Assembly: GCA_038078835.1 (NCBI GenBank)
Contig: JBBTQI010000009.1
Span: 3,714 to 67,713 of the forward strand
Origin: Patescibacteria group bacterium
GTDB lineage: Bacteria > Patescibacteriota > UBA1384 > XYA2-FULL-43-10 > 1-14-0-10-43-13
Direction: 5' to 3'
DNA: 64,000 bases
Of this stretch, positions 1,883 through 52,156 are shown one piece after another. A program made the position numbers and the translations under genes. The notes beneath the pieces were generated by a model. That model was given only the letters and a program-made list of their open reading frames with translations, had not been told where the DNA came from and searched no databases. How positions within the stretch are numbered: the stretch's first letter is position 1; each line of letters begins with the position of its first letter.

Positions 1883-2050
1883 ATCCCAAATAAAAATCCG
1901 ACAGCCGGCGGACCAAATCACAAATAAACAACAAATTCGAAATAATGAAATTTCAAGCACTGGATCGTTGGTATTTGGAAATTGGAATTTATTTGTGGTT
2001 TGGTATTTGAGATTTGAATTTTTCCCGCCGAAGGCGGGGTGGAGGGGTAA

Positions 2051-4690
2051 GTGAGGGAGAGTTGGCATAGTTGGTCGGTTTCTGAGATTGAGCGCCATTT
2101 TGAGGTGGAGGCAAGTTTAGGCTTGTCTGAGATTCGCGCCAAGCATGGTTTGACCAAGTACGGACCCAACTCTTTTGTTCAGCTGAGAGAGGCTGGTTTC
2201 TGGGGCATACTTCTTAGTCAGTTTAACAACTTCTTTATCTTCCTCTTGGCGGTTGCGGCGGCTATCTCTTATTACGTTGACGGTCTGATTCAGGCGTTAA
2301 TTCTGATTGCGATTATTACCATTAATATCGCACTTGGTTTTTTTCAGGAATATAAAGCCGAAAGGGCTCTGGCCGAGCTAAAGCGGTCTTTCTTGGCCAA
2401 GAGCAAGGTTTTACGAGCCGGACATATTAAGGAGATATCCAATGAATTCCTGACCTTGGGTGATGTTGTTCTGGTTGAGGCTGGCAACAAGGTTCCGGCT
2501 GATTTGCGTTTATTTGAGGAGGAGTCGCTTCGGGTGGATGAGTCGGCGCTAACCGGAGAGTCGGTGCCGTCAAGTAAGAGTGTTGCGCCTCTGTTGAAAG
2601 AGACACCGCTGGCCGATCGTCACAATATTCTCCACGCCGGATCTCTGGTGGCCGCCGGCCGTGGCCATGGTATTGTGGTTGCAATTGGCCGGGGGACTGA
2701 ATTTGGCCGGATCGCCGATCTGGTTCAACAGGGCGAAGAGAAAACTCCTCTTGAACGCCAGATTGCTTATTTAGGCAAAATCATCACTCTTTTTTCGATC
2801 CTTTTCTCTCTGGCGGTCTTTGCCCTTGGGTTTTGGCGGGACTTTGAGGTCTTGCCGCTTTTGACCTTTACTATTGCCCTTCTTATCGCGGCCGTCCCGG
2901 AAAGCTTGCCAACAGCAATTACGCTGGCTTTGGCTGTCGGCGTGATGCGGATGGCCCGCCAGAAGGCGATCGTGCGCAAGATGGCGGCAATTGAAACGTT
3001 GGGCACGGTTAATATTATTGCAACTGACAAGACCGGCACCCTAACTGATAACCATCTGACGGTCGGCCTTATCTCTCTCTGGGAGCGGGGCAGTTGGGAG
3101 AGAGTTGATTTTCACGCTAAGGCGAGGATCGATCGCGAGATCCGCGATCTTCTGGTGCGGGCTATTGCTTGCTCTAACATTAATACTAAAGAAAGCGGCG
3201 GTTTTATTGGCGATCCGGTCGAGGTGGCGCTGGCGGAACGGGCAAAGATGAGCGCCGGGGGAGTTCTGGCCGACGCCAAACGCTGCCATCGTCTCTTTGA
3301 GATTCCCTTTGATTCCGACAGGAAATATATGGCGGTGCTTTGCCGCCGCCGCGGCGTTAGCGAGTTGATTGTCAAGGGGATGCCGGAGCGCGTGATCTCC
3401 TTTTGCAACTTAAGTCTTCGGGGCAGGGAGAAGGCTCTTTTGGAGGCGGCAGATTTGAGCCGGGCCGGTTACAAGGTAATCGCGCTGGCACGGCGGCAAG
3501 GCGGTGTCCGTCCTAAAGCGCTGGCCAGTATGGAGCTTTTGGGTCTCTTTGCTCTGGTGGATGAACCTGCTTCGGGTATCCGCGAAGTCATTCAGCGGGC
3601 AATGCGCGCGGGAATTCGCCCCGTAATGGTCACCGGCGATCATCCCGAAACCGCTCGTTTCGTGGCCAACTCAATCGGCCTTGCTGTGGCTGATGACGAG
3701 ATAATTATCGGCACAAAGATGGATCGGATGACTAAGGCTGGTTTGCGGCGGGCGCTCCAGCGGGTTAAGATCTTTGCCCGGGTGACGCCGGAGGATAAGA
3801 CCAGAATAGTCAGGTCATTCCAAGAGTCGGGCTACACCATCGCGATGGCCGGCGATGGCATTAATGATGCTCCGGCGATTAAAGAGGCGGAGGTGGGAAT
3901 CGCGATGGGGATTAAGGGAACAGACGTCGCCAGAAGTGCTTCTGATATTGTTTTGGCCGATGATCGCTACAAAACAATCGTTGCGGCCGTAGAGTACGGC
4001 CGGACAATTTTTGACAACATCAAAAATGTCATTGTTCACCTGCTTGCCGGTAATTTTAACGAGATGCTGTTGGTGGGATTTGCCTTTCTGGCTAACTTGC
4101 CTTTGCCGATTACGACGATTCAGCTCCTCTGGGTTAATCTGATTACAGACTCCTTCCCGGCCCTGGCGCTGAGTTTTGAGAAGCCCTCCCGTCAGGTTCT
4201 CTTGGAGCCGCCGCGTTCCAGTTCGGTTAAGTCGCTTCGCCGCTCCCTTGCCTACACCGTCGCTCTCTCTCTGGTCTCCTTCATTATCTGTTTGGGGCTC
4301 TATTTATCAAATCTGGACAAATCTCCCGAGCGGGCCCGAACCATCACCTTTACCTTCTTTGTTTTAGTGCAACTAGTACTTTGTTTTTCAATTCGCTCCA
4401 AGAAAAGGATTTGGCAGGAGCCAAAAGGTTTTCTTGAGAACAAGCCCCTGTCTTGGGCCGTTCTGCTCTCGCTTGTCCTTCAGGCGGCACTTTTCCTCCC
4501 GCCGTTTCGAAGCGCCTTTGGCCTGGTCTTACTTACTCCCAGCGAGATAATACTGATGATTGTGCTGGCACTGTTTGCTTTTGCTCTGGCGGAGGTGATT
4601 CGTTACTGCTTTGATCGTTATTATGACTACAATATGATAAAAAGGGAGACGATTATAGCAAAAGTGCTCGCGCTGCCGGCCAAACATTAA
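2051..4690 (+). CDS. Cation-transporting P-type ATPase (E1-E2, type IIA-like Ca/Mg)
   Basis: 879 aa. It has the phosphorylation motif 'DKTGTLT', the hinge 'GDGINDAPA', and a 'VPESLP'-type TM4. Ten predicted TM segments. Confidence 0.88.
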   Translation: MRESWHSWSVSEIERHFEVEASLGLSEIRAKHGLTKYGPNSFVQLREAGFWGILLSQFNNFFIFLLAVAAAISYYVDGLIQALILIAIITINIALGFFQEYKAERALAELKRSFLAKSKVLRAGHIKEISNEFLTLGDVVLVEAGNKVPADLRLFEEESLRVDESALTGESVPSSKSVAPLLKETPLADRHNILHAGSLVAAGRGHGIVVAIGRGTEFGRIADLVQQGEEKTPLERQIAYLGKIITLFSILFSLAVFALGFWRDFEVLPLLTFTIALLIAAVPESLPTAITLALAVGVMRMARQKAIVRKMAAIETLGTVNIIATDKTGTLTDNHLTVGLISLWERGSWERVDFHAKARIDREIRDLLVRAIACSNINTKESGGFIGDPVEVALAERAKMSAGGVLADAKRCHRLFEIPFDSDRKYMAVLCRRRGVSELIVKGMPERVISFCNLSLRGREKALLEAADLSRAGYKVIALARRQGGVRPKALASMELLGLFALVDEPASGIREVIQRAMRAGIRPVMVTGDHPETARFVANSIGLAVADDEIIIGTKMDRMTKAGLRRALQRVKIFARVTPEDKTRIVRSFQESGYTIAMAGDGINDAPAIKEAEVGIAMGIKGTDVARSASDIVLADDRYKTIVAAVEYGRTIFDNIKNVIVHLLAGNFNEMLLVGFAFLANLPLPITTIQLLWVNLITDSFPALALSFEKPSRQVLLEPPRSSSVKSLRRSLAYTVALSLVSFIICLGLYLSNLDKSPERARTITFTFFVLVQLVLCFSIRSKKRIWQEPKGFLENKPLSWAVLLSLVLQAALFLPPFRSAFGLVLLTPSEIILMIVLALFAFALAEVIRYCFDRYYDYNMIKRETIIAKVLALPAKH

Positions 4691-7115: not shown

Positions 7116-8852
7116 TTATCGCGCCGGAGTTGGGGTGGCGAGAAGTTTGCCCTTGGCTTTTTCAACATCCTTGCTCCGGCTGGCAGCAGAGATGAAGGCC
7201 ATGAAGAGAGGATGAGGGCGGAGTGGACGGGATTGGAGCTCTGGGTGGAACTGAGTGCCGACAAAGAAGGGGTGACCCTTGATTTCAATGATCTCAACCA
7301 AATTACGCTCAGGGTTGATGCCGGCGATAACCAGTCCCGCCTTTTCCAGCTGGTCACGATATTTATTATTGAGCTCATAGCGGTGGCGGTGACGCTCGAT
7401 AATCGTTAAAGGCTCGAGGCTTAAGGCCGAAGGCAAATCATTGTCTAGCCTTCGACCTTCGGCCTTTGGCGTCTGTCTGTAGGATTTATATGAAATAGTT
7501 CCTTCCTTGAGCTTACAGGCATATCCCCCTAAACGCATTGAGCCGCCGTAATCTCGCATCTCCAGCTTCTTTTTCTGATCCGGCATAATATGTATGACAG
7601 GGTATGAAGTTTTAGGATTAATCTCCTCGGTGTGAGCACCCTTCCAACCGCAGACATTGCGGGCGAATTCGATCGTGGCAATTTGCATACCGTAGCAGAG
7701 ACCAAAATAAGGAATCTTATGTTCTCGACAATAGCCGGCGACGGCAATCTTGCCCTCAATCCCGCGGGCACCAAATCCGCCCGGCACAATCACGCCATCG
7801 TAGTTCTTAAGATTACCTAACCGAGCCTGATTCTTTTCGTATTCTTCGGAGTTAAGCCAGGTTAACTTGGGTTTTAAATTCTGACTCCAGGCGGCGTGCT
7901 TGACCGCCTCAATGACGGAGATGTAGGAATCGGCCAGGAGATAATCGCCGGTACCAAAGTATTTACCAACGATGCCGATTTTCACCTCCCGACCGCCGTT
8001 ATGAGCGTGATGGGCCAGTTCTTTCCAAGCCGAGAGGTTAGAAGGCTTTTCCGGCAAGCCAAGGTGGTGGAGGATCTTGTTACCAAAGTTTTCACTTTCA
8101 AAATTTAGGGGGATGTCATAAATCGAATCGACATCCGGCGCCGAGATGGCGTTCTCCGGTGCGATACTGCAAAAGATCGCCAGTTTTTCGCGGCGCTTGC
8201 TATCGATCGGTTTTTCGGAGCGGCAGAGAATAAAATCAGCCTGAATGCCGCAGGAGTTCAGTTCTCGTGAGGCGTGCTGAGTCGGCTTGGTCTTCATCTC
8301 GCCAACTTTGGAGGGGATGGGCAGATAGGAAACAAGAACAAAGATAACATCCTTGGGGTTTTTCAGTTTCATCATCCGGGCTGCTTCCAAAAAGAGGAGG
8401 TTTTCGTATTCGCCCACCGTGCCGCCGATCTCAATAATGGTGATGTCCGCTTTGGCCTCCTTTGTGGCGGTTTTGATCCGGCGGATAATCTCCTCAGGAA
8501 TGTGCGGCACAACCTGGACGCACTTGCCGTCATACTCCAGATTGCGTTCACGATTGATAACCGTCTGGTAGACCCGTCCCGTTGTCATATAGTTGATTTT
8601 AGTGATATTTTCATCCAAAAAGCGTTCATAGTTGCCGCAATCCTGGTCGGTCTCATCACCATCGACGGTGACAAAGACCTCGCCGTGCTCCGTTGGATTC
8701 ATGGTGCCGGCGTCAACATTAATATAAGGGTCAGCTTTCATGGCCGTGACACGGTAACCCTTGCTCTTTAGGATAGTGCCGATTGAGGCGGCAGCGATTC
8801 CCTTGCCGACCGAGGACATCACACCGCCCACCACGAAAATGTATTTGGACAT
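7116..8852 (-). CDS. pyrG: CTP synthase
   Basis: 578 aa. The N-terminus 'MSKYIFVVGGVMSSVGKGIAAASIG...' is the synthetase domain. The C-terminal glutamine amidotransferase domain contains 'GLCYGMQ'. Confidence 0.95.
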   Translation of the reverse strand: MSKYIFVVGGVMSSVGKGIAAASIGTILKSKGYRVTAMKADPYINVDAGTMNPTEHGEVFVTVDGDETDQDCGNYERFLDENITKINYMTTGRVYQTVINRERNLEYDGKCVQVVPHIPEEIIRRIKTATKEAKADITIIEIGGTVGEYENLLFLEAARMMKLKNPKDVIFVLVSYLPIPSKVGEMKTKPTQHASRELNSCGIQADFILCRSEKPIDSKRREKLAIFCSIAPENAISAPDVDSIYDIPLNFESENFGNKILHHLGLPEKPSNLSAWKELAHHAHNGGREVKIGIVGKYFGTGDYLLADSYISVIEAVKHAAWSQNLKPKLTWLNSEEYEKNQARLGNLKNYDGVIVPGGFGARGIEGKIAVAGYCREHKIPYFGLCYGMQIATIEFARNVCGWKGAHTEEINPKTSYPVIHIMPDQKKKLEMRDYGGSMRLGGYACKLKEGTISYKSYRQTPKAEGRRLDNDLPSALSLEPLTIIERHRHRYELNNKYRDQLEKAGLVIAGINPERNLVEIIEIKGHPFFVGTQFHPELQSRPLRPHPLFMAFISAASRSKDVEKAKGKLLATPTPAR

Positions 8853-15923: not shown

Positions 15924-16061
15924 CAGACTCCTTTGGAGCAAGCTCCAAGTTACAAGATACAGGAACCAAACAATATCTAAATCTCAACTCTCAAGTATCC
16001 CAATTTGAGTTTTGGTTATTGTGATTTGTTTGGGATTTGTATCTTGGTGTTTGGTTATTAC

Positions 16062-16748
16062 TTAAAGATCCTCTTTAAGCAGATTATCCAACTCTTCATC
16101 CAACTTGGCAAGACGGTCGGATTCACTCATCGCAACTTTCTTGCGGCGGACTTTGGGTTTAGTCTCGGTTGAACTCTCCGTTTTCTTGAGACCAGCCGAT
16201 TTTGACTCAACTTTTTCTGCCGCGGGTTCTGCCTCTGTCGGGGCTTCTGTCTCCAGTGCCGGCCTAGCTTTCTTTACTTCGGTCTCGGGTTTGGCCAATT
16301 CAGGAGCTTTCTCCTCCTCTTCCTTCTCGCGGATCGCTTGAAAATCTCGGCTTTCCTCTGTCTCGCCCTCGACTACTTCGAAGCTTCTCTTGCCGCCAAT
16401 AGCCTTCTCGATTTCTGCTGTATCGGCGATCTCTGCGGCGGTTAAGGTGATTTTCTCGTTGCCCGTCTCCCGAACGATCAAAAGGTGGCGGATAATCTCC
16501 GGGGCAAGTTTGATCTGATTTTCAAGCTCCCGGATATTTTCACCCGGCAATTCAAAGTTTAGAGTAATATAGGTGGCGTACTCCTGCTTTTTGATCGGAT
16601 AAGCCAATTTGCGGCGCTTCCAAATCTCCTCTTTGGCGATCTTGCCCTCAAGTTCGGCAATAAAGCCGCCGATCTTGCCGGTGACTTTGTTAATATCAGC
16701 ATCAGGGACCTTATCGGAGATAAGGTACGTCATTTCGTACTGTCGCAT
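16062..16748 (-). CDS. rpsF: 30S ribosomal protein S6 with a long acidic/low-complexity C-terminal extension
   Basis: The N-terminal ~95 aa are S6-like. It sits in the classic rpsF-ssb-rpsR order. The C-terminal ~130 aa are E/K/A/T-rich. Confidence 0.8.
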   Translation of the reverse strand: MRQYEMTYLISDKVPDADINKVTGKIGGFIAELEGKIAKEEIWKRRKLAYPIKKQEYATYITLNFELPGENIRELENQIKLAPEIIRHLLIVRETGNEKITLTAAEIADTAEIEKAIGGKRSFEVVEGETEESRDFQAIREKEEEEKAPELAKPETEVKKARPALETEAPTEAEPAAEKVESKSAGLKKTESSTETKPKVRRKKVAMSESDRLAKLDEELDNLLKEDL

Positions 16749-16900: not shown

Positions 16901-18064
16901 TTAGTGCTTAATGTTAAAACGGAACATTGCCACGTCGCCGTCCTGCATCACATACTCTTTGCCCTCGGTTCGGACTAAGCCGTGAGTTTTGGCCCCGCCC
17001 CATCCCTCTTGAGCATAGAGATCTTGCCAGGGAATGATTTCGGCGGCGATAAAACCCTTCTCGAAATCGGTGTGGATCACCCCGGCCGCCGCCGCCGCTT
17101 TGGCGCCTTTCTTAACTGTCCACGCTCGCGTCTCTTTCTCGCCGGAGGTAAAGAACGTCTGAAGTCCTAATAGTTCATACGCTTTCTTAATTAGTATGTT
17201 AAGCCCGGTTTCCTTCATATCTAGAGCCTCAAGGTACTCTTTCTTCTCTACCTCTCCTAGATCATTTAATTCAGACTCAATCCTGGCAGAAATCTTAATA
17301 AACTCCTCACCCCCACCCTCTCCTCTTGGAGGAGAGGAGGTATTAGAATTCCCTTGTCCTTGTAAAGAGAGAGCCCCTCCGCCTTTCCCTCGCCCCTGTG
17401 GGGAGAGGGTTAGGGTGAGGGGTAGTTGTTTTTCTGAAACATTAGCAATATAGAGAACTGGCTTCATAGTGAGAAGCGAGAGCCCCCCAACAACATCCTT
17501 TTCCTGATTATCTAGTTTGGCCTCCCGGGCGTTGCGGCCGCTATTTAGGATATCCTTAATCTTTTGGAGGGCGGAGTGGGCGACCTCCGACTCTTTGCTG
17601 TGGGCTTTTAGCTCTTTTTCGGCCGCATAAAGACGTTTTTCGACTGTCGAAAGGTCGGCTAACTGCAGTTCGGTTTCAATGGTTTTGATATCATCAAGCG
17701 GATCAATTTTATTTTCAGTGTGGACGATGTTAGGATCATCAAAAAACCTCACCACCATAGCAATGGCATCACACTCTCTGATGTGCGCCAAAAACTGGTT
17801 GCCCAACCCCTCGCCTTTGGAGGCACCGCGAACCAGGCCGGCAATATCGACAAATTCAATAGTGGTCGGCACAATCTTGGCCGACTTGGAGACCTCGGCC
17901 AAGGGTTTTAGCCGCTCGTCCGGTACAAGGACCACGCCAACATTAGGATCAATAGTGCAAAAGGGATAATTAGCCGCCTCCGCCTTGGCACCCTTAATTA
18001 GAGCATTAAATAAAGTGCTCTTTCCGACATTTGGCATGCCGACAATTCCGATTTGAAGTGACAT
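16901..18064 (-). CDS. ychF: Ribosome-binding ATPase YchF, with a ~50-aa in-frame insertion encoded by a GC-rich palindromic element
   Basis: G1 'GIVGMPNVGKSTLFNAL', a TGS domain, and 'HTDFEKGFI'. The inserted segment is 'LTLTLSPQGRGKGGGALSLQGQGNSNTSSPPRGEGGG', which corresponds to the long inverted repeat at ~17305-17425. Confidence 0.9.
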   Translation of the reverse strand: MSLQIGIVGMPNVGKSTLFNALIKGAKAEAANYPFCTIDPNVGVVLVPDERLKPLAEVSKSAKIVPTTIEFVDIAGLVRGASKGEGLGNQFLAHIRECDAIAMVVRFFDDPNIVHTENKIDPLDDIKTIETELQLADLSTVEKRLYAAEKELKAHSKESEVAHSALQKIKDILNSGRNAREAKLDNQEKDVVGGLSLLTMKPVLYIANVSEKQLPLTLTLSPQGRGKGGGALSLQGQGNSNTSSPPRGEGGGEEFIKISARIESELNDLGEVEKKEYLEALDMKETGLNILIKKAYELLGLQTFFTSGEKETRAWTVKKGAKAAAAAGVIHTDFEKGFIAAEIIPWQDLYAQEGWGGAKTHGLVRTEGKEYVMQDGDVAMFRFNIKH

Positions 18065-19716: not shown

Positions 19717-20062
19717 TAATTTTATGTGACTCGAATAGTTTTAATGTTATGAAATTTATCAATTATTAAGTTCAGAGAATAACAAATTTATGTGATAACT
19801 AAGATTTTAGGAGGTTTATGCACCTTGTCGTTTTTAAAATGGAAACATTATTGGATTTTTTGTTTACGTTAGTCAAACGAAAGTAAACATAAGATTAAAA
19901 GTTATTTTGGGAAATTACTTTAGCAAAGTACTTTGCTAATCGAGTTCACATCATTAGATTTACCCCCATTTGTCGAACGATTGGTATTGCATTTAAAGAA
20001 AATTAAAATCCCCGCCGGTGAGGACGGGGGTGGGTGGGACTGTTGCTCTACAGCCTCTGCCG

Positions 20063-20473
20063 TCAGGAAATGATGACCTGGATCTGCTTGAGCCAGGTCG
20101 AGCATTGCTCGGCCGCCTCGGTCGGAGCGGTGGTGTCGAGCTTCTTCTTGCGAAACAGGCTTCGACGCTTCTGGGCATCATTTCGCAGGGCGCAGATGGC
20201 CCTGACGAGTGCTTCTCTTGCCAGGCCAAAAGCTTGCCGTCTTGTCTGATCGGAGACATCACTCTGGGAAATGGCTACTGCCAGATCGCGGCAGACCTGG
20301 CAACCCACAACCAGGCGTCTGATCCAGTCAGGCGTCATCACCGATGCGTCGCCATCCTCATCGTGTCCCGAATTAAGGGTGGCGTTTTCAGCTTCGCGAT
20401 TCACCCCATCACTCAGCAGGACTAAGAGCGCTTGCGCGTTCTCCCGTTTGTACACCAGATTTAACCTGACCAT
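20063..20473 (-). CDS. Hypothetical protein (GC-rich island)
   Basis: 136 aa with no recognisable motif. GC content differs from the flanks. Confidence 0.35.
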   Translation of the reverse strand: MVRLNLVYKRENAQALLVLLSDGVNREAENATLNSGHDEDGDASVMTPDWIRRLVVGCQVCRDLAVAISQSDVSDQTRRQAFGLAREALVRAICALRNDAQKRRSLFRKKKLDTTAPTEAAEQCSTWLKQIQVIIS

Positions 20474-20611
20474 CGGCCTCTCTCCTTTCGCCGGTCGTAT
20501 CTAGATATACGCTTTAATGATAACTCAGTCAATGTTATTTGTTTTGGTTGACAAAAGAGCGCAAGGAGTTTAAAAATAAGTTGGTCCTACCGGGTGAAGA
20601 TTGGAGGAGAA

Positions 20612-21145: not shown

Positions 21146-21271
21146 CCCCACCAAGATTTTCCTATTCCGCCTCTTGGGTGGAATAAGGAGAGTGGGTGTT
21201 GATTGTTTGCAATTGACATCTCTGGTGTGAATATGTTAAGTTCGAGCGGTCAGCGGAAAGGAGATAGGGAC

Positions 21272-21634: not shown

Positions 21635-21792
21635 AACTCATCAGGAGCGGCGGGAGTGTCGCCGTCCCTGGCTGGAGCAGGTTCCCAAGCCGTAGCAATG
21701 CTGCGGCTTTTTATGTTTTTGAATGCTTACTAAAAAATACTCACTTGCTTCCGATCGAACATAAGCAAGTATTTTTTTAAGAGCAAAGAAAA

Positions 21793-21822
21793 AGCGGGAC
21801 GTCCCACAGGGGTCGTCCCGCT
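21793..21822 (-). terminator. Rho-independent terminator for the minus-strand gene 21856..22556
   Basis: 9-bp stem 'agcgggacg...cgtcccgct', followed on the minus strand by a T-run. Confidence 0.6.
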
Positions 21823-26522: not shown

Positions 26523-28643
26523 ATGGGTGATGATTTGTTGGAAGATCTAAATGATCAGCAAAAAGAGGCGGTTCTGGCAACCGAGGGGCCTGTTTTGGTG
26601 CTCGCAGGCGCTGGAAGCGGGAAAACAAAAGCGTTAACTCACCGGCTGGCTTATCTGGTCAAGGAGAAGGGTGTCTCGCCCTTCAATATTTTGGCAGTGA
26701 CTTTTACTAATAAAGCAGCTGGGGAGATGGCGTCAAGAGTGAGTACGCTCTTGGCCCAAGGCCAAAGGCCCAAGGTCCAAGGCCAGGATGACAGTTTTGT
26801 CTCCGACCCTCGGCCTCAATCCTTCGGCCTCCGATTGCCCTGGCTGGGCACTTTTCACTCCGTCTGCGTCCGGATTTTACGGCGGGAAGCACAACACATT
26901 GGCTACGAGCGCAATTTCACCATTTACGACGATGGCGATCAGCTCTCGATTATCAAGCGGATAATGAAAGATTACGACATCAACCCCAAGCAATTCGCGC
27001 CCCAGGCGGTCAGATCCTTTATCTCCGGCGCCAAGAATGAACTCCTTGATGCCGAGGGTTATAAGAAGTATGCTAATTCGCCGATGGAGGCGGTGGCCGG
27101 CCGGGTTTTTGACCGCTACGAACAGTATCTTAAAGACGCCAACGCGATGGATTTTGACGACCTCATTGTTCAATGCGTCCGCCTCTTCGAGGAGAATCCG
27201 GCGGTGCTTAAGGAGTATCAGGATCGTTTTAGGTACATTTTAATCGACGAGTATCAGGACACCAATCAGGCGCAATACATCTGGGTCAAGATGCTGGCCA
27301 AAAAACACCAAAACATTATGGTCGTGGGGGATGATTTTCAGTCGATTTATTCTTGGCGCGGCGCAAATTTTCGCAACATCTTAAACTTCAACCGCGATTA
27401 TCCCCGGGCTAAGGTAATTAAGTTGGAGCAGAACTATCGCTCGACCCGGACAATTCTCTCGGCGGCGAATGAGGTGATCAAATATAACCGTCAGCGGACC
27501 GATAAAAATCTCTGGACGGAGAATGCGGAGGGCTTGCCAATCACGGTCTATGAAGCCTTGAACGAGAAGGATGAGGCGGAGTTCGTGGCGATGGAAATAA
27601 TGTCGCTGATGAGGCGGAATCAAAAAATAAGTGTCATTTCTCGTCCCGATAGTCATCGGGACGAGAAATCCCGTCAATCCCAAGAGAGATGGGATCTCTC
27701 GTCGCAGGCTCCTCGAGATGACTATAGCCAAGGTCTTGGCTATAGTCATTTTACCGTTCTCTATCGCACCAATGCTCAATCGCGGGCGATCGAGGAGGCT
27801 CTGCTGCGTTTTAATATTCCCTACCGCGTTGTTGGCGGCATTCGTTTTTATGAGCGCAAAGAGATAAAGGATATCGTGTCGTACCTTCGCTTTATTCTAA
27901 ATCCAAATGATAGCGAGGCGTTTGAACGGATTGTAAATATGCCGCTAAGAGGAATTGGCGAAGCAACGATAGCGAAGATGCGCCAATTTCCAATTTCCGA
28001 TTTTCAATTTCCAAATAATGTCCAAATTTCAAATCCCAAAATCCAAAAATTTTTCGTCATGATGCAGGAGATGAGGGAGTATGCGCAAGATATTGATCTG
28101 CCGACCTTGATTGAACATGTGGCGGTAAAATCGGGCTACAAGAACTATTTACTCGACGGTACCCCGGAGGGCGAGGGAAGGTGGGAAAATATTCTTGAGT
28201 TAACGAGCGTAGCTCGGTCACTAACTCAAGAAGTCGAAGGTCAAAGGCTTAAGGCCGAAAGCGATTATAATGATAGCCTTTGGCCTTTGGCCTTTGGCCT
28301 TGAGCTCTTCTTGGAGCGGGTGGCGTTGGTGCAGGATGCGGATAATATCGACAGAAGTGCGGACGCGGTGACACTTATGACTCTCCACTCGGCCAAGGGC
28401 CTGGAGTTTCCGGTAGTCTTTATTGTCGGGGCCGAGGAGGGTCTCTTTCCCCACTCCCGGGCACTTATGGATGAGAGTGAGATGGAGGAGGAGCGGCGGC
28501 TTTGCTACGTTGGCATCACCCGGGCGATGCGGCGGCTCTACCTTATCCATGCCTCCGAGCGCACCTACTTTGGCCGCTTGCAGTGGAACCCCAAATCCCG
28601 CTTTATCGAATCCATCCCCGAGTGTTTGATTGATAAAATATGA
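26523..28643 (+). CDS. uvrD: ATP-dependent DNA helicase UvrD/PcrA, with several low-complexity in-frame insertions
   Basis: Walker A 'AGAGSGKTKALTHR', and 'VLYRTNAQSRAIEEAL'. Inserted tandem repeats 'ggccaaagg'xN lie at 26754-26788, with the inverse 'cctttggcc'xN at 28275-28305. A 'ccaaat/ccaaaa' repeat lies at 27983-28050. Confidence 0.9.
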   Translation: MGDDLLEDLNDQQKEAVLATEGPVLVLAGAGSGKTKALTHRLAYLVKEKGVSPFNILAVTFTNKAAGEMASRVSTLLAQGQRPKVQGQDDSFVSDPRPQSFGLRLPWLGTFHSVCVRILRREAQHIGYERNFTIYDDGDQLSIIKRIMKDYDINPKQFAPQAVRSFISGAKNELLDAEGYKKYANSPMEAVAGRVFDRYEQYLKDANAMDFDDLIVQCVRLFEENPAVLKEYQDRFRYILIDEYQDTNQAQYIWVKMLAKKHQNIMVVGDDFQSIYSWRGANFRNILNFNRDYPRAKVIKLEQNYRSTRTILSAANEVIKYNRQRTDKNLWTENAEGLPITVYEALNEKDEAEFVAMEIMSLMRRNQKISVISRPDSHRDEKSRQSQERWDLSSQAPRDDYSQGLGYSHFTVLYRTNAQSRAIEEALLRFNIPYRVVGGIRFYERKEIKDIVSYLRFILNPNDSEAFERIVNMPLRGIGEATIAKMRQFPISDFQFPNNVQISNPKIQKFFVMMQEMREYAQDIDLPTLIEHVAVKSGYKNYLLDGTPEGEGRWENILELTSVARSLTQEVEGQRLKAESDYNDSLWPLAFGLELFLERVALVQDADNIDRSADAVTLMTLHSAKGLEFPVVFIVGAEEGLFPHSRALMDESEMEEERRLCYVGITRAMRRLYLIHASERTYFGRLQWNPKSRFIESIPECLIDKI

Positions 28644-31285: not shown

Positions 31286-32287
31286 ATGGCAGACTTAACC
31301 GACAAAAAGCAACTAATTCGTTTTTTGCAACAGCACGGGCTTTATACCAAGAAGAAGCTGGGGCAGAATTTTTTAGTTGATAGGGCTGCGCTCGATAAGA
31401 TTGTCGATGCCGCCGGATTATTAAAAGACGATTGTGTTATCGAGATTGGGCCGGGGTTGGGGGTTTTGACAGAGGAGTTAGTGAAGAGAGCTGGAAAAGT
31501 AGTGGCGGTGGAGCTGGACGCGGCTCTGGCCGAGATTTTAGAAGTTAGATTTTCGAAGTTAGAAGAAAATCAAAAACCTCTAAAATCTAAAATCGATATT
31601 CTAAAATCTGATATTCTTCGTATCAACCTTAGTGAAACCACCAAGGATTGTTCGAGTTATAAAGTCGTTGCCAATATTCCTTACTACATCACATCGAAAA
31701 TCCTACGCTTTTTCTTGGAGGCGGAGAAGAAACCGGAATTGATAGTATTGCTAACGCAAAAAGAGGTAGCCGAAAGAATAGTAGCTAAGCCGGGCGAGAT
31801 GTCGATTCTGTCAGTCTCGGTTCAATACTACGGCCGGCCGGAGATTATAGATATTGTGCCTGAAACATCGTTCTTTCCCATGCCGGAAGTTGATAGTGCA
31901 ATATTAAAAATATCGAATATCCATACCCCCTCTAACTCCCCCTTACTAAGGGGGAGAAATCTAAATAATAGTTCCTTCCTTAAAATAGGGAATATTCCCT
32001 CTGATTCCTCCCCTAAGATAGGGGAGGTTAGGTGGGGTATGGAAAATACCGATGTAAAGGAATTTTTCCGCTGTATTCATATCGGTTTTTCGTCAAGGCG
32101 AAAAACATTACTAAATAACTTATCTGCCGGTTACCATCTGGATAAAAAAACAACGCTTGATATACTGGAAAAAGTGGGCTTGACGGAGAGGACAAGAGCG
32201 CAGGAACTATCAATCGGGAAATGGCAGGAGTTATGCCGCCAGTTGCCGGATTGGGACAGGAAAGACAATGAACGAAGCGGGAGCTAG
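31286..32287 (+). CDS. rsmA: 16S rRNA (adenine1518/1519-N6)-dimethyltransferase RsmA/KsgA, with in-frame repeat and palindrome insertions
   Basis: 'KKKLGQNFLVD...IEIGPGLGVLTEEL'. Insert 1 (31586-31625) is a 'tctaaaatc' repeat. Insert 2 (~31925-32045) carries three palindromes and encodes '...SPLLRGRN...SDSSPKIGEVRWGM'. Confidence 0.9.
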   Translation: MADLTDKKQLIRFLQQHGLYTKKKLGQNFLVDRAALDKIVDAAGLLKDDCVIEIGPGLGVLTEELVKRAGKVVAVELDAALAEILEVRFSKLEENQKPLKSKIDILKSDILRINLSETTKDCSSYKVVANIPYYITSKILRFFLEAEKKPELIVLLTQKEVAERIVAKPGEMSILSVSVQYYGRPEIIDIVPETSFFPMPEVDSAILKISNIHTPSNSPLLRGRNLNNSSFLKIGNIPSDSSPKIGEVRWGMENTDVKEFFRCIHIGFSSRRKTLLNNLSAGYHLDKKTTLDILEKVGLTERTRAQELSIGKWQELCRQLPDWDRKDNERSGS

Positions 32288-38589: not shown

Positions 38590-38773
38590 AGAATTATTCA
38601 AGCTACCACGGATTGGTTAAACAGCATTGCAATTACAAAAAAAGACGGTATTTCAACTGGCTCCTTGGATAAAAAACTAGTGCTTGGTATACTGGTATCG
38701 GTTGGATTGAATGACAAAACTCGGGCGCAGGAATTGCCGGTTAACAAGTGGGAGCAACTTTGCGAAAGATTTT
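38590..38773 (+). pseudogene. Diverged duplicate of the ksgA 3' end (remnant/displaced copy)
   Basis: It translates to '...SLDKKLVLGILVSVGLNDKTRAQELPVNKWEQLCERF*'. The ksgA C-terminus is 'HLDKKTTLDILEKVGLTERTRAQELSIGKWQELCRQL'. Nucleotide identity is roughly 60-65%. Confidence 0.5.
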
Positions 38774-38774
38774 A

Positions 38775-38892
38775 GAATCTAGATTTTGGATTTTAGAATT
38801 AATATTGAGAGCAGAATTAAATGATTAATTCCTCACTCTAGCTTCACTCTAAAATCTATATTCTAACATCTAAAATCTAACAGGTGAGGGGA
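38775..38892. repeat. MITE-like inverted-repeat element built from 'gattttagaat'/'ctaaaatct' units
   Basis: The left arm 'gattttagaatctagattttggattttagaatt' and right arm 'ctctaaaatctatattctaacatctaaaatctaac' are near reverse complements. The same unit occurs in-frame in ksgA (31586-31625). Confidence 0.45.
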
Positions 38893-40366: not shown

Positions 40367-40391
40367 TACTCTTGTTAATGGAGAGTTATCA

Positions 40392-41189
40392 ATGAATGAG
40401 AGATCAGGCACACTTTTTATCGTTGCCACGCCGATCGGCAACTTGGAGGACATTACGCTTCGGGCGATTCGGGTCTTGCAGGATGTTGACCTGATTGCTT
40501 GCGAGGATACGCGAGTGACGCGGCATCTCTTAGATCACTTTGAGATCAAAACACCAACAGTGTCATATTTTCAGCACTCTAAATTATCGAAGATCGACTA
40601 CCTGATATCGGAGCTGCGGTCGGGCAAAGATATCGCCTTAATTTCCGATGCCGGCACACCGGCAATCAGCGATCCGGGACAGGAGTTAATTGCTAACATT
40701 CGTCAGGCTTGTCATTCTGAACCCTTCGGCCTTACTCAGGGTAAACTCCGTGAAGAATCTAGGTCGCCAAAGGCGACCGTAAATAAGAGTGCGGCTTCGC
40801 CTAGATCCTTCGCTAACGCTCAGGATGACATCAGGGTGGTGCCCATCCCCGGCCCGTCGGCTTTGACGGCGGCGGCGAGTGTCTCCGGTATGATCGAGAA
40901 AGAGTTTTACTTTGCCGGGTTTTTGCCCAAGAAAAAGGGCCGGCAGACAGAATTAAAGAAACTATCGAAGCTCGATGTGCCGATTATAATGTACGAATCA
41001 ACTTTAAGGTTAGAGCGAACGCTTGCCGATATTAAAACGTATTTTGATGACAAGACCGAAGTCTTTGTTGCTCGAGAAATGACCAAAATGTTTGAAGAGT
41101 ATTGGGGCGGGAAGATAGATGAAGTCTTAAACGATCTCAAGAGTCACAAGTTAAAAGGTGAGATTGTGTTGGTGGTCAAGAAATTATAA
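40392..41189 (+). CDS. rsmI: 16S rRNA (cytidine1402-2'-O)-methyltransferase RsmI, with a ~40-aa in-frame insertion
   Basis: 'GTLFIVATPIGNLEDITLRAIRVLQDVDLIACEDTR...' and 'VVPIPGPSALTAA'. The insertion 'CHSEPFGLTQGKLREESRSPKATVNKSAASPRSFANAQDDIR' at ~40710-40835 contains the hairpin 'ctaggtcgccaaaggcgacc'. Confidence 0.8.
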   Translation: MNERSGTLFIVATPIGNLEDITLRAIRVLQDVDLIACEDTRVTRHLLDHFEIKTPTVSYFQHSKLSKIDYLISELRSGKDIALISDAGTPAISDPGQELIANIRQACHSEPFGLTQGKLREESRSPKATVNKSAASPRSFANAQDDIRVVPIPGPSALTAAASVSGMIEKEFYFAGFLPKKKGRQTELKKLSKLDVPIIMYESTLRLERTLADIKTYFDDKTEVFVAREMTKMFEEYWGGKIDEVLNDLKSHKLKGEIVLVVKKL

Positions 41190-43980: not shown

Positions 43981-45549
43981 ATGAGCAAGAAATATTATAT
44001 TACAACCCCAATTTATTACGTTAATGATGTCCCGCACGTCGGTCATGCTTACACCACTATTGCGGCGGATGTTTTGGCGCGGTATCACCGGGAAAAAGGC
44101 GAGGAGGTCTTTTTTTTGACCGGCACGGACGAGCATGGGGCCAAGATTGCCGAGGCGGCGGAGAAGGCCGGCAAAGAGCCTAAGGCTTTTGTCGATGAAC
44201 TGGCGCCGAAGTTCCAAGAGGTTTGGAAGAAATTAAATATTAATTATTCCGAATTTTTTAGAACGACCAATCCCGAGCACGAGAGGCTGGTGCAGGAGTT
44301 TATCGGGCGGGTTAATAAGGCCGGTTACATCGAGAAACGGCAATACACCGGACTCTATTGCATTGCCTGCGAGCGGTATTATCGCGAGGATGAGTTAATC
44401 GACGGCAAGTGTCCAGATCACAAGCGCGAGCTCGTCAGGCAATCAGAGGAAAATTATTTCTTTCTTTTATCCAAATTTGGAGATCAATTACTGGAAAAGA
44501 TCGAATCTGGTGAGATGGAGATCGGGCCGGAGACGCGCAAGAATGAGATCGTCAGCAAGATAAAACTGGGTCTGGAGGATATCAGTATTTCCAGAGCTAA
44601 TGTTAAGTGGGGCATTCCTTTTCCCGGAGACGAATCTCAAACTATTTATGTCTGGTTCGATGCACTGCTAAATTATTGGACGGCGACGAAGATCTACGGC
44701 CAAGATAAGGGGGACAGTCCCCAGGCTGCAAAGGGGACAGTCCCCGGACCGGAATGGCCGGCGGATTTGCACTTGATGGCCAAGGACATTTTGTGGTTTC
44801 ATGCCGTGATTTGGCCGGCGATGCTCCTTGCGGCCGGTGAGGCTGTGCCTAAAAAGGTCTTTGCTCACGGCTTCTTCACTATCAACGGTCAAAAGATGAG
44901 CAAGACACTGGGTAATGTCATTAACCCCAACGAAGTCGTCGACAAATTCGGCGCCGATGCCGTTCGCTACGCCCTTCTGCGCGAATTCCCCTTTGGCGAA
45001 GACGGCGATATCTCGGTGGAGAAGATCGGCGAGCGCCATAAAGAGCTGGCGGATACCTTGGGGAATTTACTTCAACGTACTGTCGTGATGATTAATAAAT
45101 ATCAAGTCCATACCACCTCTAGCCCCTCCTACCCTAGGAGGGGAAATGGGGAGATTGACCCAACCCATTCTTCCCTCCCTAAGATAGGTAGTCTATCTTC
45201 CGATTCCTCCCCTAAGATAGGGGAGGCTAGGTGGGGTATGAGTATTAACTTAGATATTGAATCATCGCAATTTTCTCGCGCTTTGGAGAAGATCATGACT
45301 TTTGCGGCGAAGCAGAACCAATTTATTAATGAGAAAGCGCCGTGGGTTTTAGCCAAAGAAGGCAAAACGAATGAAATTAAAGAGGTTTTAAGTGCAGTTT
45401 ATGGTAACCTTATGATAATATCGGAACTTTTCATACCCTTCATGCCCGAGACGGCTAAAAAGATGAAACAGCAGTTGGAATCATTGAAACCCGAGCCGTT
45501 ATTCCCCAGAATCGACTTAGATAAAACACAGATGATGAAAGCAGATTAA
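43981..45549 (+). CDS. metG: Methionyl-tRNA synthetase (short form), with a ~45-aa in-frame palindromic insertion
   Basis: 'PIYYVNDVPHVGHAYTT' (HIGH) and 'KMSKTLGNV' (KMSKS). The insertion at ~45115-45245 encodes 'SSPSYPRRGNGEIDPTHSSLPKIGSLSSDSSPKIGEARWGM'. Its 41 nt at 45201-45241 are nearly identical to ksgA 32000-32040. Confidence 0.9.
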   Translation: MSKKYYITTPIYYVNDVPHVGHAYTTIAADVLARYHREKGEEVFFLTGTDEHGAKIAEAAEKAGKEPKAFVDELAPKFQEVWKKLNINYSEFFRTTNPEHERLVQEFIGRVNKAGYIEKRQYTGLYCIACERYYREDELIDGKCPDHKRELVRQSEENYFFLLSKFGDQLLEKIESGEMEIGPETRKNEIVSKIKLGLEDISISRANVKWGIPFPGDESQTIYVWFDALLNYWTATKIYGQDKGDSPQAAKGTVPGPEWPADLHLMAKDILWFHAVIWPAMLLAAGEAVPKKVFAHGFFTINGQKMSKTLGNVINPNEVVDKFGADAVRYALLREFPFGEDGDISVEKIGERHKELADTLGNLLQRTVVMINKYQVHTTSSPSYPRRGNGEIDPTHSSLPKIGSLSSDSSPKIGEARWGMSINLDIESSQFSRALEKIMTFAAKQNQFINEKAPWVLAKEGKTNEIKEVLSAVYGNLMIISELFIPFMPETAKKMKQQLESLKPEPLFPRIDLDKTQMMKAD

Positions 45550-49681: not shown

Positions 49682-52156
49682 ATGAAGAACAATGAATCTA
49701 AAAACATCTCTCTCTCGATCTCCGGAATGCACTGCTCTTCCTGCGCGGGCATCATTGAGAGAGCGCTTAAAAAGACGCCGGGAGTAAAATCGGCCAATGT
49801 TAACTTTGCGGCCGAAAAAGCCCTTATCCACCTCAACGAAAAAGGCGCTTCTCCCCTAGATCTTATTGGCGCTGTGAAAAAAGCCGGCTACAAGGCCCAG
49901 CTTATTGACAGAAATGATACCGAGCATGAATCAGCTAAGCGTCAAAGAGAGACTGTTGCTCTCTGGAAAAAGTTCCGCTTCAGTTTCACGCTAAGCCTCC
50001 CTATGCTCTACTTTATGCTGCTTGATTTTTTTAAGTGGCTGCCGGGCGCCGAGCTGTTGCCGCCCTATTTTGGCGTTATTTCCTTTCTTCTGGCTACACC
50101 GGTCCAATTCATCGTCGGCGCCGGTTTCTATAAAGGGATGTGGTCAAGTCTTCGTATGAAGACATTTAATATGGATTCCCTGATTGCTATTGGTACTTCG
50201 ACGGCTTATCTCTACAGTTTGGTTAATTTCTTTATATTTATGGCGCAGAACGGAACATTGCTCGGTTTGGCCGGAGAAAAGATTCCCGAACTTTACTTTG
50301 AAACTGCCGCTTTTCTCATAACCTTTGTTGGGCTTGGCAAATGGTTGGAGGCGCGGGCAAAGGGCCGAACATCGGAAGCGATCAAGAAATTAATGGGGTT
50401 GCAGGCTAAGACGGCTCGTGTTATTCGGAATGGTGTGACCTCGGATATTCCAATCGACGAAGTTGTAACCGGCGATATTATTCTGGTTCGCCCCGGTGAG
50501 AAAATCCCGGTTGACGGTAAGATCGTCAAGGGCTCATCTGCCATTGATGAGTCAATGATTACTGGCGAATCCTTGCCGGTTGAGAAAAATGTTGGTGATG
50601 GTGTTGTCGGTGCTACAATTAACAAAACCGGCTCATTCGAATTTGAAGCCACTCGTGTCGGTTCGGAAACGACTTTGGCTCAGATCATTCGCCTGATTGA
50701 AGAAGCCCAGGGTTCCAAGGCGCCAATTCAAGCGTTTGCCGACCGCATCTCGGCTTACTTTGTGCCAATTGTGATCGCATTAGCCATCTTGACATTTATC
50801 GTTTGGTTTTTGATACTTGGTGAAAGTTTGTCTTTCGCCCTTATGGCTTTCACTGCCGTCATTGTTATAGCCTGTCCCTGCGCTTTGGGCCTGGCAACAC
50901 CGACAGCAATTATGGTTGGCACCGGCAAGGGCGCCGAGCATGGCATTCTTGTTAAGGGCGGCGAACCGCTTGAAAAAGCCTGCAAGATAAACACAGTAGT
51001 TTTTGATAAAACCGGAACATTGACCAATGGTAAACCGGTTGTGACTGATATTTTGACTCTGAGCGATGTGGATGAAGATGAAGTTTTAGCAATTGCGGCC
51101 AGTCTGGAAAAATCCTCAGAACATCCTTTGGCTGAGGCAATTTACACTTATGCCAATAAAGAGTCCATCGCCCTGGAAGATGTCGTCAATTTCAAAGCAA
51201 TCCCCGGCCATGGAGTCGAGGGCAATATTGGCAAGACTAAATATTATTTTGGTAACCGGCGGCTTATTGAAACGATTGGGCTGGATACTCAGCTTCAAGT
51301 TTCAAGTTTCAAGCTTCAAGAACTAGAGGAGCAGGGTAAGACTGCCATGATTCTGGCGACGAAAGAAAAAATTGTCGGCATCATCGCCGTCGCCGATACA
51401 GTTAAAGAAACTTCCAAGGAAGCTGTGGCTAAATTACAAGCAAGGGGCATTACTGTCTATATGATCACCGGCGACAATGAACGCACTGCTAAAGCCATTG
51501 CCAAGGAGGTTGGCATTACTAACGTCCTGGCAGAAGTTCTACCCAAAGATAAAGCCGCTGAAGTCAAAAGGCTTCAGAATGACCAGCCGCCGGGAGACAA
51601 TAACCAAACAAAGACATCTGGCAATTTGAGAATTGGAACTCGGAATTTATTTGGTTTTTGGAGTTTGGTATTTGGTGTTTCCACAACTCGTCAAAAACGA
51701 GTTGTGGCCATGGTTGGCGACGGTATTAATGATGCTCCCGCTCTGGCTCAGGCCGATCTGGGCATTGCCATGGGTAGCGGCACGGATGTAGCTATGGAAA
51801 CGGGCGGCATTGTTATCATTAAAAATGACCTAAATGATGTCGTAAATGCTATTCAGTTGTCCATGGAAACAATGAGTAAAATCAAGCAAAATATGTTCTT
51901 TGCTCTCTTCTATAATGTTGCCGGCATTCCGATTGCCGCCCGGGTTTTTGCCGGCGCCGGCCTGATTTTAAAACCGGAGTTGGCCGGCTTGGCTATGGCT
52001 CTCTCCTCTGTCTCGGTTGTAACCAACTCTCTTTTGCTTCGCCGCTATCAGCCAAACCGCAGAAACTGGCTTTCCCTCATTGCTCCCCCTGTAATGATCG
52101 TGTTCTTCTTCCTTCTTTTTCTTGAATTTGCCCGCTTGAGCACGGAGATGAAGTAA
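49682..52156 (+). CDS. copA: Copper-translocating P1B-type ATPase CopA, with a ~40-aa in-frame insertion
   Basis: 'GMHCSSCAG' (HMA), 'CPC', 'DKTGTLT' and '[10 protein letters not shown]'. The insertion '[41 protein letters not shown]' at ~51585-51700 contains the perfect palindrome 'ccacaactcgtcaaaaacgagttgtgg' and a 'tttgg' repeat. There is also a 'caagtttcaagtttcaagcttcaag' tandem at 51294-51320. Confidence 0.92.

Follow-up and report, generated by a model that had tools for sequence, protein, structure and literature searches.

The insertion of palindromic repeats within protein-coding genes has been described in several groups of organisms. The Rickettsia palindromic elements (RPEs), for instance, are described as palindromic repeats of ~100-150 nucleotides (nt) that interrupt unrelated housekeeping genes in frame and are translated in a manner compatible with the fold of the host protein (Ogata et al. 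2000, 2002, as summarised in PMC10969869). In-frame insertions of repetitive extragenic palindromic (REP) sequences have been documented in Opitutus, Xanthomonas, Thioalkalivibrio and others (PMC3733652, Di Nocera et al. 2013). Intragenic REP dimers of the GTAG and CGTC types encode 20-30 or more residues, a CGTC tag has been assigned to RPE-4 and RPE-6, and no dedicated transposase has been reported for the CGTC superfamily (PMC3733652). Additionally, the bacterial MITEs (transposable elements of the miniature inverted-repeat type), such as Correia/NEMIS, ERIC, Nezha and RUP, measure 70-300 nt, carry terminal inverted repeats, give rise to folded RNA and occasionally produce in-frame fusions (PMC10969869), while coding palindromes are found in the mitochondrial genes of Nematomorpha (PMC6649704). 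Here, we compare with these systems the palindromic inserts of a 64,000-nt contig stretch (hereafter, the window) from a member of the Patescibacteria, or Candidate Phyla Radiation (CPR), recovered from the Hainich groundwater metagenome, where at least seven of ~50 genes (~1 in 7) carry them.

The CPR inserts are a new instance of a known phenomenon, that of in-frame palindromic repeats. They are additional with respect to homologues, they form hairpins and keep open reading frames, they belong to families common to several genes and genomes, and they occupy loops whose content turns over, the one in KsgA lying in a linker. We consider it probable that they are selfish hairpin repeats, similar to REP and to the BoxC repeat of Escherichia coli, that landed in genes and were kept in permissive loops, with nucleases of the DUF559 family as candidate partners by association. 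Among the published descriptions that we found, none includes the turnover at hot spots across a streamlined radiation, the near-identity to BoxC or DUF559 as a candidate partner nuclease. A first-pass annotation of the window had called such inserts uncharacterised for this kind of genome and, in agreement with it, no description from CPR/Patescibacteria was found, although most subscription journals were beyond reach.

The limits of the inserts were set by aligning the window proteins to solved homologues. The five inserts listed by the first-pass annotation (in ychF, ksgA, metG, rsmI and copA) were all recovered at their positions, each as one block of 110-150 nt that is missing from the solved homologues, while the rest of the protein aligns over its full length. 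The list itself was incomplete, as there are at least four more inserts, one in pyrG and three in a uvrD/pcrA-like gene, plus a second palindrome in ksgA (31533-31609), so that ten inserts are distributed across seven genes: ychF, ksgA (2), metG, rsmI, copA, pyrG and the uvrD/pcrA-like gene (3). Furthermore, the inserts in rsmI and copA had been regarded as GC-rich elements analogous to the others; both are present, but that of copA is AT-rich (GC 0.43) and belongs to a different class. We thus distinguish GC-rich, REP-like dimers (class A: ychF, ksgA site 2, metG, rsmI and uvrD ii) from hairpins with 7-nt-periodic arms (class B, see below). The class A inserts, their host genes and a related intergenic unit are the following (aa, amino acids).

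16901..18064, minus strand: ychF, 387 aa, E = 2e-110 to Haemophilus influenzae YchF 1jal; Pfam MMR_HSR1 and YchF-GTPase_C
17296..17430, minus strand: ychF insert, an inverted BoxC-like REP dimer with tags outward, encoding PLTLTLSPQGRGKGGG...SSPPRGEGGGEE
31286..32287, plus strand: ksgA/rsmA, 333 aa, E = 8e-48 to Bacillus subtilis KsgA 6ifs
31920..32043, plus strand: ksgA site-2 insert, a REP dimer (CCATACCCCCTCTAAC-hairpin ... hairpin-GTTAGGTGGGGTATGG) with a third, inner hairpin; aa 210-257 unaligned
43981..45549, plus strand: metG, 522 aa, E = 9e-128 to Aquifex aeolicus MetRS 2csx
45108..45241, plus strand: metG insert, of the REP-dimer family shared with ksgA (CCATACCACCTCTAGCC ... GGCTAGGTGGGGTATG); aa 376-425 unaligned
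40389..41189, plus strand: rsmI, 266 aa from the ATG at 40389, E = 2e-48 to 3kwp and 5e-47 to E. coli RsmI 5hw4
40710..40830, plus strand: rsmI insert, a long hairpin with ends TGTCATTCTGA...TCAGGATGACA (CGTC-like tag), encoding CHSEP...EES...SFANAQDD
26523..28643, plus strand: uvrD/pcrA-like helicase, 706 aa, E = 6e-182 to PcrA 1pjr
27624..27746, plus strand: uvrD insert ii, aa 368-406, a GTCATTTCTCG...CTCGAGATGAC element with an extra hairpin; inverted repeat I23, sliding-fold z = -4.7
2022..2053, plus strand: intergenic REP-like singlet (CCCGCCGAAGGCGGGG plus tag TGGAGGGGTAAGTG), its tag extending into the GTG start (2051) of a P-type ATPase gene

The unit of class A is a GC-rich hairpin followed by a tag of 13-17 nt, which reads YTAGG(G)TG(A)GGGG.. 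in ychF, ksgA and metG. In these three genes, two inverted units with their tags outward stand 45-60 nt apart and make up an element of ~125 nt. The long imperfect inverted repeat noticed earlier in ychF was confirmed as I4 (17302-17337 / 17388-17423), with 36-nt arms that are 75% complementary, and the corresponding repeat of ksgA site 2, I2, has 39-nt arms that are 77% complementary. The near-identical 41-nt core reported for ksgA and metG is also real (39 nt at 97% identity, E = 7e-15), although its first base differs too (t versus c). These two elements share the terminal inverted repeats CCATACCnCCTCTAnC ... GYTAGGTGGGGTATG(G) and a 21-mer for which no matches are expected. By contrast, the ends of the rsmI and uvrD ii elements read TGTCATTCTGA / GTCATTTCTCG and define a second family, with a TGTC tag, of which dimers are also found in other CPR loci (L007, L025 and L029).

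In their architecture, these elements are similar to REP sequences and their composites, the bacterial interspersed mosaic elements (BIMEs) and REPINs (REP doublets forming hairpins), since they combine a GC-rich hairpin with a short tag and occur as singlets, as inverted dimers that can fold into one long hairpin and as arrays. However, their tags are TTAG or CTAG (ksgA, metG, ychF) and TGTC (rsmI, uvrD ii) rather than GTAG or CGTC. The rsmI-type TGTC family is close to the CGTC superfamily of REPs, and its resemblance to the CGTC tag of RPE-4/RPE-6 may be taken as a lead only. As in MITEs, there are terminal inverted repeats (CCATACC...GGTATGG, in elements of 124-134 nt), but target-site duplications were not seen and no parent insertion sequence with a DDE transposase and the same ends was found.

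The families extend well beyond the window. In a search of a single genome for each species, the 21-nt tag from the ksgA/metG unit was matched at 29 loci in other genomes, mostly of CPR, with eight of the hits in a single Berkelbacteria genome; Saccharibacteria, Peribacteria, Doudnabacteria, a metagenome-assembled genome (MAG) of Elusimicrobia, Devosia and a Rhodospirillales MAG are further carriers. Most of these copies are single intergenic units, while some are intragenic and may even use the frame of the window (e.g., L009). A structural census gave 47 units in 198 kb of tag loci, versus three unconvincing hits in 674 kb of control loci; the window itself holds three ksgA-type units. Viral contigs yielded zero matches to the 21-nt tag and, thus, no sign of a phage vector. 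We also considered the frame shared by ksgA, metG and L009 (SSPKIGEVRWGM) as independent evidence, and rejected it because the other two forward frames contain stops.

One of the units has a close relative in E. coli. The 5′ unit of the ychF insert, read in gene orientation (CCCCTCACCCTAACCCTCTCCCCACAGGGGCGAGGG), is identical at 35 of 36 positions to the BoxC copy in the spacer between ycjD and fabI, and over its first 23 nt it fully matches the flank of a DUF559 gene of Sinorhizobium meliloti. E. coli K-12 has, downstream of ycjD and before fabI, a 56-nt sequence of which every E. coli genome contains dispersed copies, a median of 16 and a maximum of 29 (5426 genomes); K-12 has been annotated with 33 copies of the 56-bp BoxC repeat (PMC5172473). 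The ychF unit and BoxC both consist of a hairpin plus the tag TTAGGGTGAGGGG, although the match is limited to a 36-nt core and the outer 20 bp of the 56 bp differ. Moreover, the top-listed E. coli copies of BoxC have no annotated feature at the match, whereas the ychF unit is dimerised, inside a gene and in frame. BoxC was reportedly first noted next to envM/fabI by Bergler et al. in 1992. Because of the 35/36 match with E. coli and the 23-nt identity with S. meliloti, the ychF insert is, on sequence grounds, a translated dimer of a BoxC-type unit. As a separate observation on the E. coli locus (L123; K-12 NC_000913.3, 1351050-1351420), a second copy of the final ~35 nt of ycjD (GGAGACGGTGCTGGAGAATATTC..) lies ~70 nt past the stop codon and is followed by GGGTTAGGGGCTGTATG, resembling the CPR tag GGTTAGGTGGGGTATG.

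If the segments were ancient parts of the host proteins, close relatives would be expected to conserve them; alignment of orthologues gave the opposite picture. We compared 120 CPR homologues of YchF (64-100% identity) and 120 of KsgA. The insert of YchF (aa 213-253) is unaligned between residues 211 and 232 of the H. influenzae protein, in a loop, after YIANVSEEQL, that measures 9-16 residues in short forms and 20-55 residues in 57 of the 120 homologues. Orthologues that are 70-78% identical to the YchF of the window have either 9-16 residues at this position or the peptide of a different palindrome: P0125 (78% identical) has 13 residues, while P0123 (74-75%) has the filler HTPPNLPLLKGG..SPPRLGGVRGGM, encoded by a compact dimer of the ksgA/metG family (CCATACCCCGCCTAACC-hairpin ... 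hairpin-GGTTAGGGGCGGTATGG; locus L035). Other fillers of the same loop include CHSERSEES..SFANAQDD and VIPAEAGIQ.., among others. Similarly, KsgA is expanded at one or both of two loops in 73 of 120 homologues, site 1 being an insertion hot spot in CPR KsgA. Overall, the loops in question contain other elements, or no element, in CPR orthologues of 60-78% identity, and peptide families such as CHSE..AQDD and HTPPNLP.. recur at unrelated ones; the rsmI-type peptide, for example, is found at the KsgA and YchF hot spots of other CPR. As a control, 78 of 80 non-CPR YchF loci (~50% identity, among the matches listed) span nearly the whole query (1041-1179 nt).

The strong hairpin potential suggested earlier was borne out by folding. 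Compared with dinucleotide shuffles, the minimum free energies correspond to z = -3.6 for the ychF insert, -4.7 for ksgA, -3.7 for metG and -3.5 for rsmI, with a weaker value for copA (-2.0), and the inserts rank among the strongest fold peaks of a sliding scan of the window. As also noted at first, the reading frame is preserved: all ten inserts are in frame and free of stops, whereas just 20 of the 60 frames available to them are open. Apart from the inserts, the host proteins are intact and align end to end with solved homologues. The inserts add 24-50 aa of low complexity, including residues such as IGEVRWGMENTDVK, LSPQGRGK and SFANAQDDIR. That every insert uses an open frame when most frames are closed argues that ribosomes would read through these segments.

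The expected location in surface loops was examined with structure models. In the AlphaFold2 (AF2) model of KsgA, with a predicted local distance difference test (pLDDT) score of 85.6, residues 225-252 fall below 50, between a strand (204-210) and a helix (255-267), so that the site-2 insert is unstructured and joins the last strand of the methyltransferase (Rossmann) domain to the first helix of the C-terminal domain. The model of YchF, on the other hand, was too poor for use (pLDDT 52.7), and for the genes other than ksgA the loop position derives from clean gaps versus solved structures. For instance, the rsmI insert comprises aa 103-146 (counted from the ATG at 40389), where 3kwp has five residues.

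The parallel with RPEs that had been drawn for the window holds at the level of behaviour, that is, in-frame and stop-free insertion with turnover at orthologous loops. Both involve palindromes in housekeeping genes, at fold-compatible sites of a reduced host genome, with no associated transposase. They differ in phylum and sequences, in that several unrelated families occupy one loop across CPR lineages, in that one family is common with E. coli BoxC, and in density, which appears higher here (at least 7 of the ~50 genes of the window).

Class B comprises the inserts of copA, pyrG, ksgA site 1, uvrD i and uvrD iv, whose arms are made of tandem 7-nt words. In the window, AAGGCCN has 11 sites where 1.4 are expected and AGATTTT has 10 where 1.8 are, and the large hairpins of the intergenic spacers at 1912-2004, 15953-16046 and 38767-38878 are built from the same words.

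49682..52156, plus strand: copA, 824 aa, E = 4e-189 to Archaeoglobus fulgidus CopA 3j09
51581..51707, plus strand: copA insert, 37 aa (634-670), of 7-nt-periodic TTTGGNA-type words; clean gap versus 3j09
31533..31609, plus strand: ksgA site-1 AT-rich palindrome with 7-nt-periodic arms (AGATTTT/AGAAGTT); inverted repeat I5, 31-nt arms, 81% complementary
26757..26840, plus strand: uvrD insert i, aa 79-106, with AAGGCCN-heptamer arms; gap versus PcrA 1pjr
28215..28316, plus strand: uvrD insert iv, aa ~565-598, an AAGGCCN / CCTTTGG heptamer hairpin; strongest fold peak of the window, z = -5.3
7404..7475, minus strand: insert of pyrG (CTP synthase, 7116-8852), aa 460-483, an AAGGCCG heptamer hairpin; inverted repeat I22
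38767..38878, no strand assigned: intergenic hairpin with 54-nt arms and AGATTTT words as in ksgA site 1; similar hairpins at 1912-2004 and 15953-16046; inverted repeats I1, I3 and I17

The copA insert falls exactly between 'KKLQA' and 'KEVVAFVGDG' of A. fulgidus CopA, immediately ahead of the GDGxNDxP motif, and is a 76% match to an intergenic repeat at 1968-2016 (family D15). The perfect palindrome that had been described for this gene is located at 51681-51707. The pyrG insert is a gap versus the CTP synthase of Thermus thermophilus (1vco). Class B hairpins may be a separate population, generated or remodelled locally.

A possible partner emerged from the tag loci. In six of the 29, a small open reading frame (ORF) abuts the unit, with its ATG or its stop codon in or beside the tag. 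Four of the six ORFs are assigned by Pfam to DUF559 (PF04480; E = 6e-28 to 1e-32), a Vsr-like PD-(D/E)xK nuclease domain, and the remaining two (L008 and L011) were called DUF559 by tblastn similarity; a second, inverted unit stands at the opposite end of the gene in each of the six loci. A weak tblastn hit of the transposase queries (see below) beside a repeat unit in L013 led to the DUF559 gene. One Berkelbacteria genome has one DUF559 cassette and at least eight dispersed units with the same tag, an alphaproteobacterial contig (L119) has a cassette between trpB and trpA, and the C-termini of many of 120 DUF559 homologues from diverse bacteria run into repeat peptides (PPLPTLSPEGERA, TTPSNSPL). 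Gene-less dimers, with tags inward, are also found in L119 and L120. Two further features of these loci deserve mention. In L011 (3219-3545, on a contig labelled Peribacteria), the DUF559 gene has in-frame TGA codons where its homologues have Gly, which, read as sense codons, would imply genetic code 25. In the trp operon of L119 (3384-3800), there are two copies of the 5′ end of trpA (ATGACC(A)CCCGCCTCTCCTC..CCCCGCCGACCG), one on each side of a small ORF that directly follows the DUF559 cassette, and this doubling looks like a duplication that may derive from an insertion event.

The association was also examined in the reverse direction, by choosing eight DUF559 genes regardless of repeats and inspecting their flanks. 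REP-like units were present on both flanks in five, on one flank in three and on neither in none, and within the eight loci the units concentrate at the DUF559 gene.

L120, Patescibacteria: both flanks; also a unit array and a gene-less dimer
L121, unidentified (Joint Genome Institute metagenome contig): both flanks, 40-nt inverted repeat
L126, S. meliloti pSymB: both flanks, 107-nt inverted repeats of tag-outward dimers that carry the ychF-type tag, scoring 95 where the null reaches at most 11
L125, Azospirillum: both flanks, 24-nt perfect inverted repeat
L127, Deinococcus: both flanks, 23-nt inverted repeat
L122, Photobacterium: one flank
L124, Synechocystis (cyanobacteria, a partial case): one flank
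L123, E. coli ycjD: one flank

This arrangement resembles that of REPtrons, where one small nuclease gene is bracketed by inverted units and copies with the same tag are dispersed in the genome. The bracketed gene is, however, DUF559 (Vsr-like PD-(D/E)xK) instead of a REP-associated tyrosine transposase (RAYT, of the HUH-Y1 type), no gene for which was found in the searched loci. The DUF559 cassettes share the units, but in CPR with tags facing the gene. The Vsr/DUF559 fold family includes the homing endonuclease I-Bth0305I, and DUF559-dependent DNA damage has been described in Caulobacter (PMC9403480, PMC3424549, PMC12907096). This fold family provides a precedent for a selfish, DNA-cutting role, although the intron or intein context of I-Bth0305I is absent here and the repeat specificity of DUF559 is putative. 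We found no publication that connects REP or BoxC repeats with DUF559, YcjD or Vsr-like proteins, most subscription journals again being out of reach.

From these observations, the following course of events can be proposed. Small non-coding hairpin repeats of the REP/BoxC kind would land within genes, where the copies tolerated would be those with a length that is a multiple of three bases, in one of their one or two stop-free frames and at a loop or domain linker, so that they would be translated as extra, probably disordered, surface loops. Copies would be rapidly gained, lost and replaced, and orthologous CPR loops would, for that reason, hold different elements or none. The DUF559 nuclease, its gene bracketed by units, would nick at the tag or the hairpin, and copying would follow by repair, template switching or gene conversion; this mode of spread is inferred from an associative link. 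In this REPtron-like arrangement, a PD-(D/E)xK nuclease would replace RAYT, and its non-autonomous copies in the gene-dense CPR would persist chiefly as loops that are translated, at the recurrent hot spots of essential proteins. On a more tentative level, a superfamily of tagged hairpins that spans phyla and includes BoxC, the Sinorhizobium-type CCCCTCACCCTAACC repeats and the CPR elements might have the very widespread DUF559 (YcjD in E. coli) as its dedicated partner nuclease; if so, the near-identity of 36 nt between CPR and E. coli would be due to a conserved enzyme recognising the unit, or to horizontal spread. A stretch after the ksgA element (ATGGAAAATACCGA, resembling ATGGAAAAATACCGA of L025) could be a 5′ remnant of DUF559, but the same codons also align with native KsgA residues.

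Several results weigh against the insertion of selfish repeats with DUF559 as their partner. The tag does not always stand on the same side relative to DUF559: the CPR cassettes have it proximal, Deinococcus and Azospirillum distal. Instead of mobilising the units, DUF559 could on that account be a passenger or their preferred target. No gene for DUF559, RAYT or another transposase was found in the 64-kb window; Pfam gave no transposase among its 40 ORFs of at least 150 aa, and tblastn with sequences of IS200 TnpA and E. coli RAYT (YafM), a weak test, found nothing significant in the window and ~215 kb of CPR loci. No direct repeat flanks the ksgA, metG or L035 elements, no presence/absence polymorphism was seen (all contigs encode an identical YchF), and each family has at most two or three units within the window. 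The translation of the inserts was deduced from their frames, not observed. Finally, the right arm of the perfect copA palindrome encodes the conserved RVVA, and its left arm resembles an inverted copy of the native sequence; for this case, consequently, a local inverted duplication fits better than an insertion.

The latter point belongs to an explanation in which nothing was inserted, and the palindromes were made in place by template switching at quasi-palindromes together with slippage of short words. Such a local origin is in line with the arms of class B, where what is shared is 7-nt tandem words and no long sequence, with the overlap between the ksgA site-1 palindrome and codons that align to homologues and with the lack of target-site duplications. 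Nevertheless, it leaves unexplained the 39 nt at 97% identity in the unrelated genes ksgA and metG, the same tag at 29 loci elsewhere, the 35/36 identity between ychF and BoxC and the recurrence of the CHSE..AQDD and HTPPNLP.. peptide families at unrelated loops. We judge it unlikely as a general account, while for class B only it is plausible, slippage and template switching being there a serious alternative. A selected function of the RNA or DNA (stabilisation of mRNA, pauses for folding, or internal ribosome-binding sites of the form GGAGG-N11-ATG) would account for the start codons that the tag provides in the DUF559 cassettes and before the P-type ATPase gene, for the in-frame endings ...GGAGGYTAGGTGGGGTATG of the ksgA and metG elements, for the position of the ksgA element at a domain boundary and for the strong hairpin in nearly every intergenic spacer of the window. 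Against such a role, orthologues of 70-78% identity do without the insert or have an unrelated one at the same loop, and element families are interchangeable at a site, and no element was seen to covary or to be conserved with a particular gene; a selected function is thus decidedly improbable.

Still less credit can be given to the two remaining alternatives. In yeast mitochondria, GC clusters and 'byp' hairpins lie within genes and, in the byp case, are skipped by the ribosome. The CPR segments might likewise be missing from the protein, either as mini-introns or through ribosome bypass, and compact, stable hairpins with paired ends could indeed unite splice sites or take-off and landing sites. 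However, maintenance of the frame and avoidance of stops in all ten inserts, when two thirds of the frames have stops, would be needless if the segments were removed, and Rfam gave no intron or ribozyme family at gathering score, in contrast to what self-splicing introns would give, nor do the short, low-complexity inserts correspond to inteins. Thus, although hairpin inverted repeats are tolerated in coding genes here as in yeast and Nematomorpha mitochondria, the CPR frames indicate ordinary translation rather than byp skipping, and removal is very improbable. That the inserts are lineage-specific functional loops, inherited vertically and palindromic only incidentally at the DNA level, is scarcely credible: many CPR orthologues do have expansions at these loops, but close orthologues fill them with unrelated content, which matches non-coding repeats found elsewhere, and the KsgA insert has no structure in the AF2 model.

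An assembly artefact was considered as the source of the inserts and rejected, because an identical YchF recurs in separately assembled samples. This protein is encoded on eight contigs, the four places listed for them being four different samples, and the longest of these contigs measures 179 kb (European Nucleotide Archive ERZ1292638). Both the KsgA and the YchF proteins are labelled 'Patescibacteria group bacterium' by NCBI.

If the inserts are selfish REP/BoxC-like repeats, some consequences follow. CPR/Patescibacteria are thought to be extremely streamlined, yet ~1 in 7 genes of the window would carry selfish hairpin DNA in frame. Such an origin may explain protein-length variation, 'CPR-specific insertions' and many odd, low-complexity peptides of metagenomic proteins, and the segments should be masked in phylogenies built from alignments and in structure predictions. 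Additionally, the inserts mark permissive loops in YchF, KsgA, MetRS, RsmI, CopA, PcrA and PyrG, which could be useful for protein engineering, and the link between BoxC and DUF559/YcjD would merge two old unknowns, the nature of BoxC and the role of DUF559, into one hypothesis testable in E. coli.

The window contains ordinary housekeeping genes, including ychF-S6-SSB-S18-EFP, GroEL, pyrG, the uvrD/pcrA-like helicase, ksgA, rsmI, metG, copA, tatD and folD, as well as two further P-type ATPase or metal genes besides copA, and Rfam at gathering thresholds gave zero matches over its entire length. Some minor features were also noted. The ribosomal protein S6 gene (16062-16748, minus strand) encodes 228 aa, of which only residues 3-91 form the S6 domain; the long C-terminal extension is common to relatives (224-239 aa in L034 and L036). 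Between the ORF at 35071-37914 and an Nramp gene, the non-coding DNA at 38560-38770 (plus strand) gives a translation similar to the C-terminus of KsgA (...NDKTRAQELPVNKWEQLCER), resembling a pseudogene piece or a second, partial ksgA ~6.5 kb away from the intact gene. Two pairs of direct repeats of ~110 nt were found at 37792-37905/38219-38332 (89% identity) and 43134-43243/43609-43718 (85%), the former copying the 3′ end of a 947-aa AAA_5-like ORF into the spacer downstream. The ORF at 41158-41786 has a weak, sub-threshold match to PF05635, the 23S rRNA intervening-sequence protein (E = 2e-6, 28.6 bits, cut-off 33.8), and is surrounded by 9-nt-periodic ATAAGTCGT / ATAAGACNT repeats, with a palindrome of 22-nt arms at 41537-41580.

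At 24940-26020, there is ~1 kb without a convincing ORF that holds three strongly folding segments (z = -3.3 to -4.5); Rfam gave no family for 24.9-26.1 kb, with chance miRNA-like matches only even at E <= 1, and the region may be an undescribed structured RNA or decayed DNA. A GC-rich block at 20000-25000 (0.55-0.57 versus 0.36 just upstream), with ORFs that have no Pfam match, may be an acquired island. Finally, a long coding array at 59800-63000 (plus strand) consists of repeats of ~150 nt (50 aa) with the motif ..LYAG.G....GD.EVW.WNG..W..IGGD and looks like a beta-propeller or Kelch-like surface protein.

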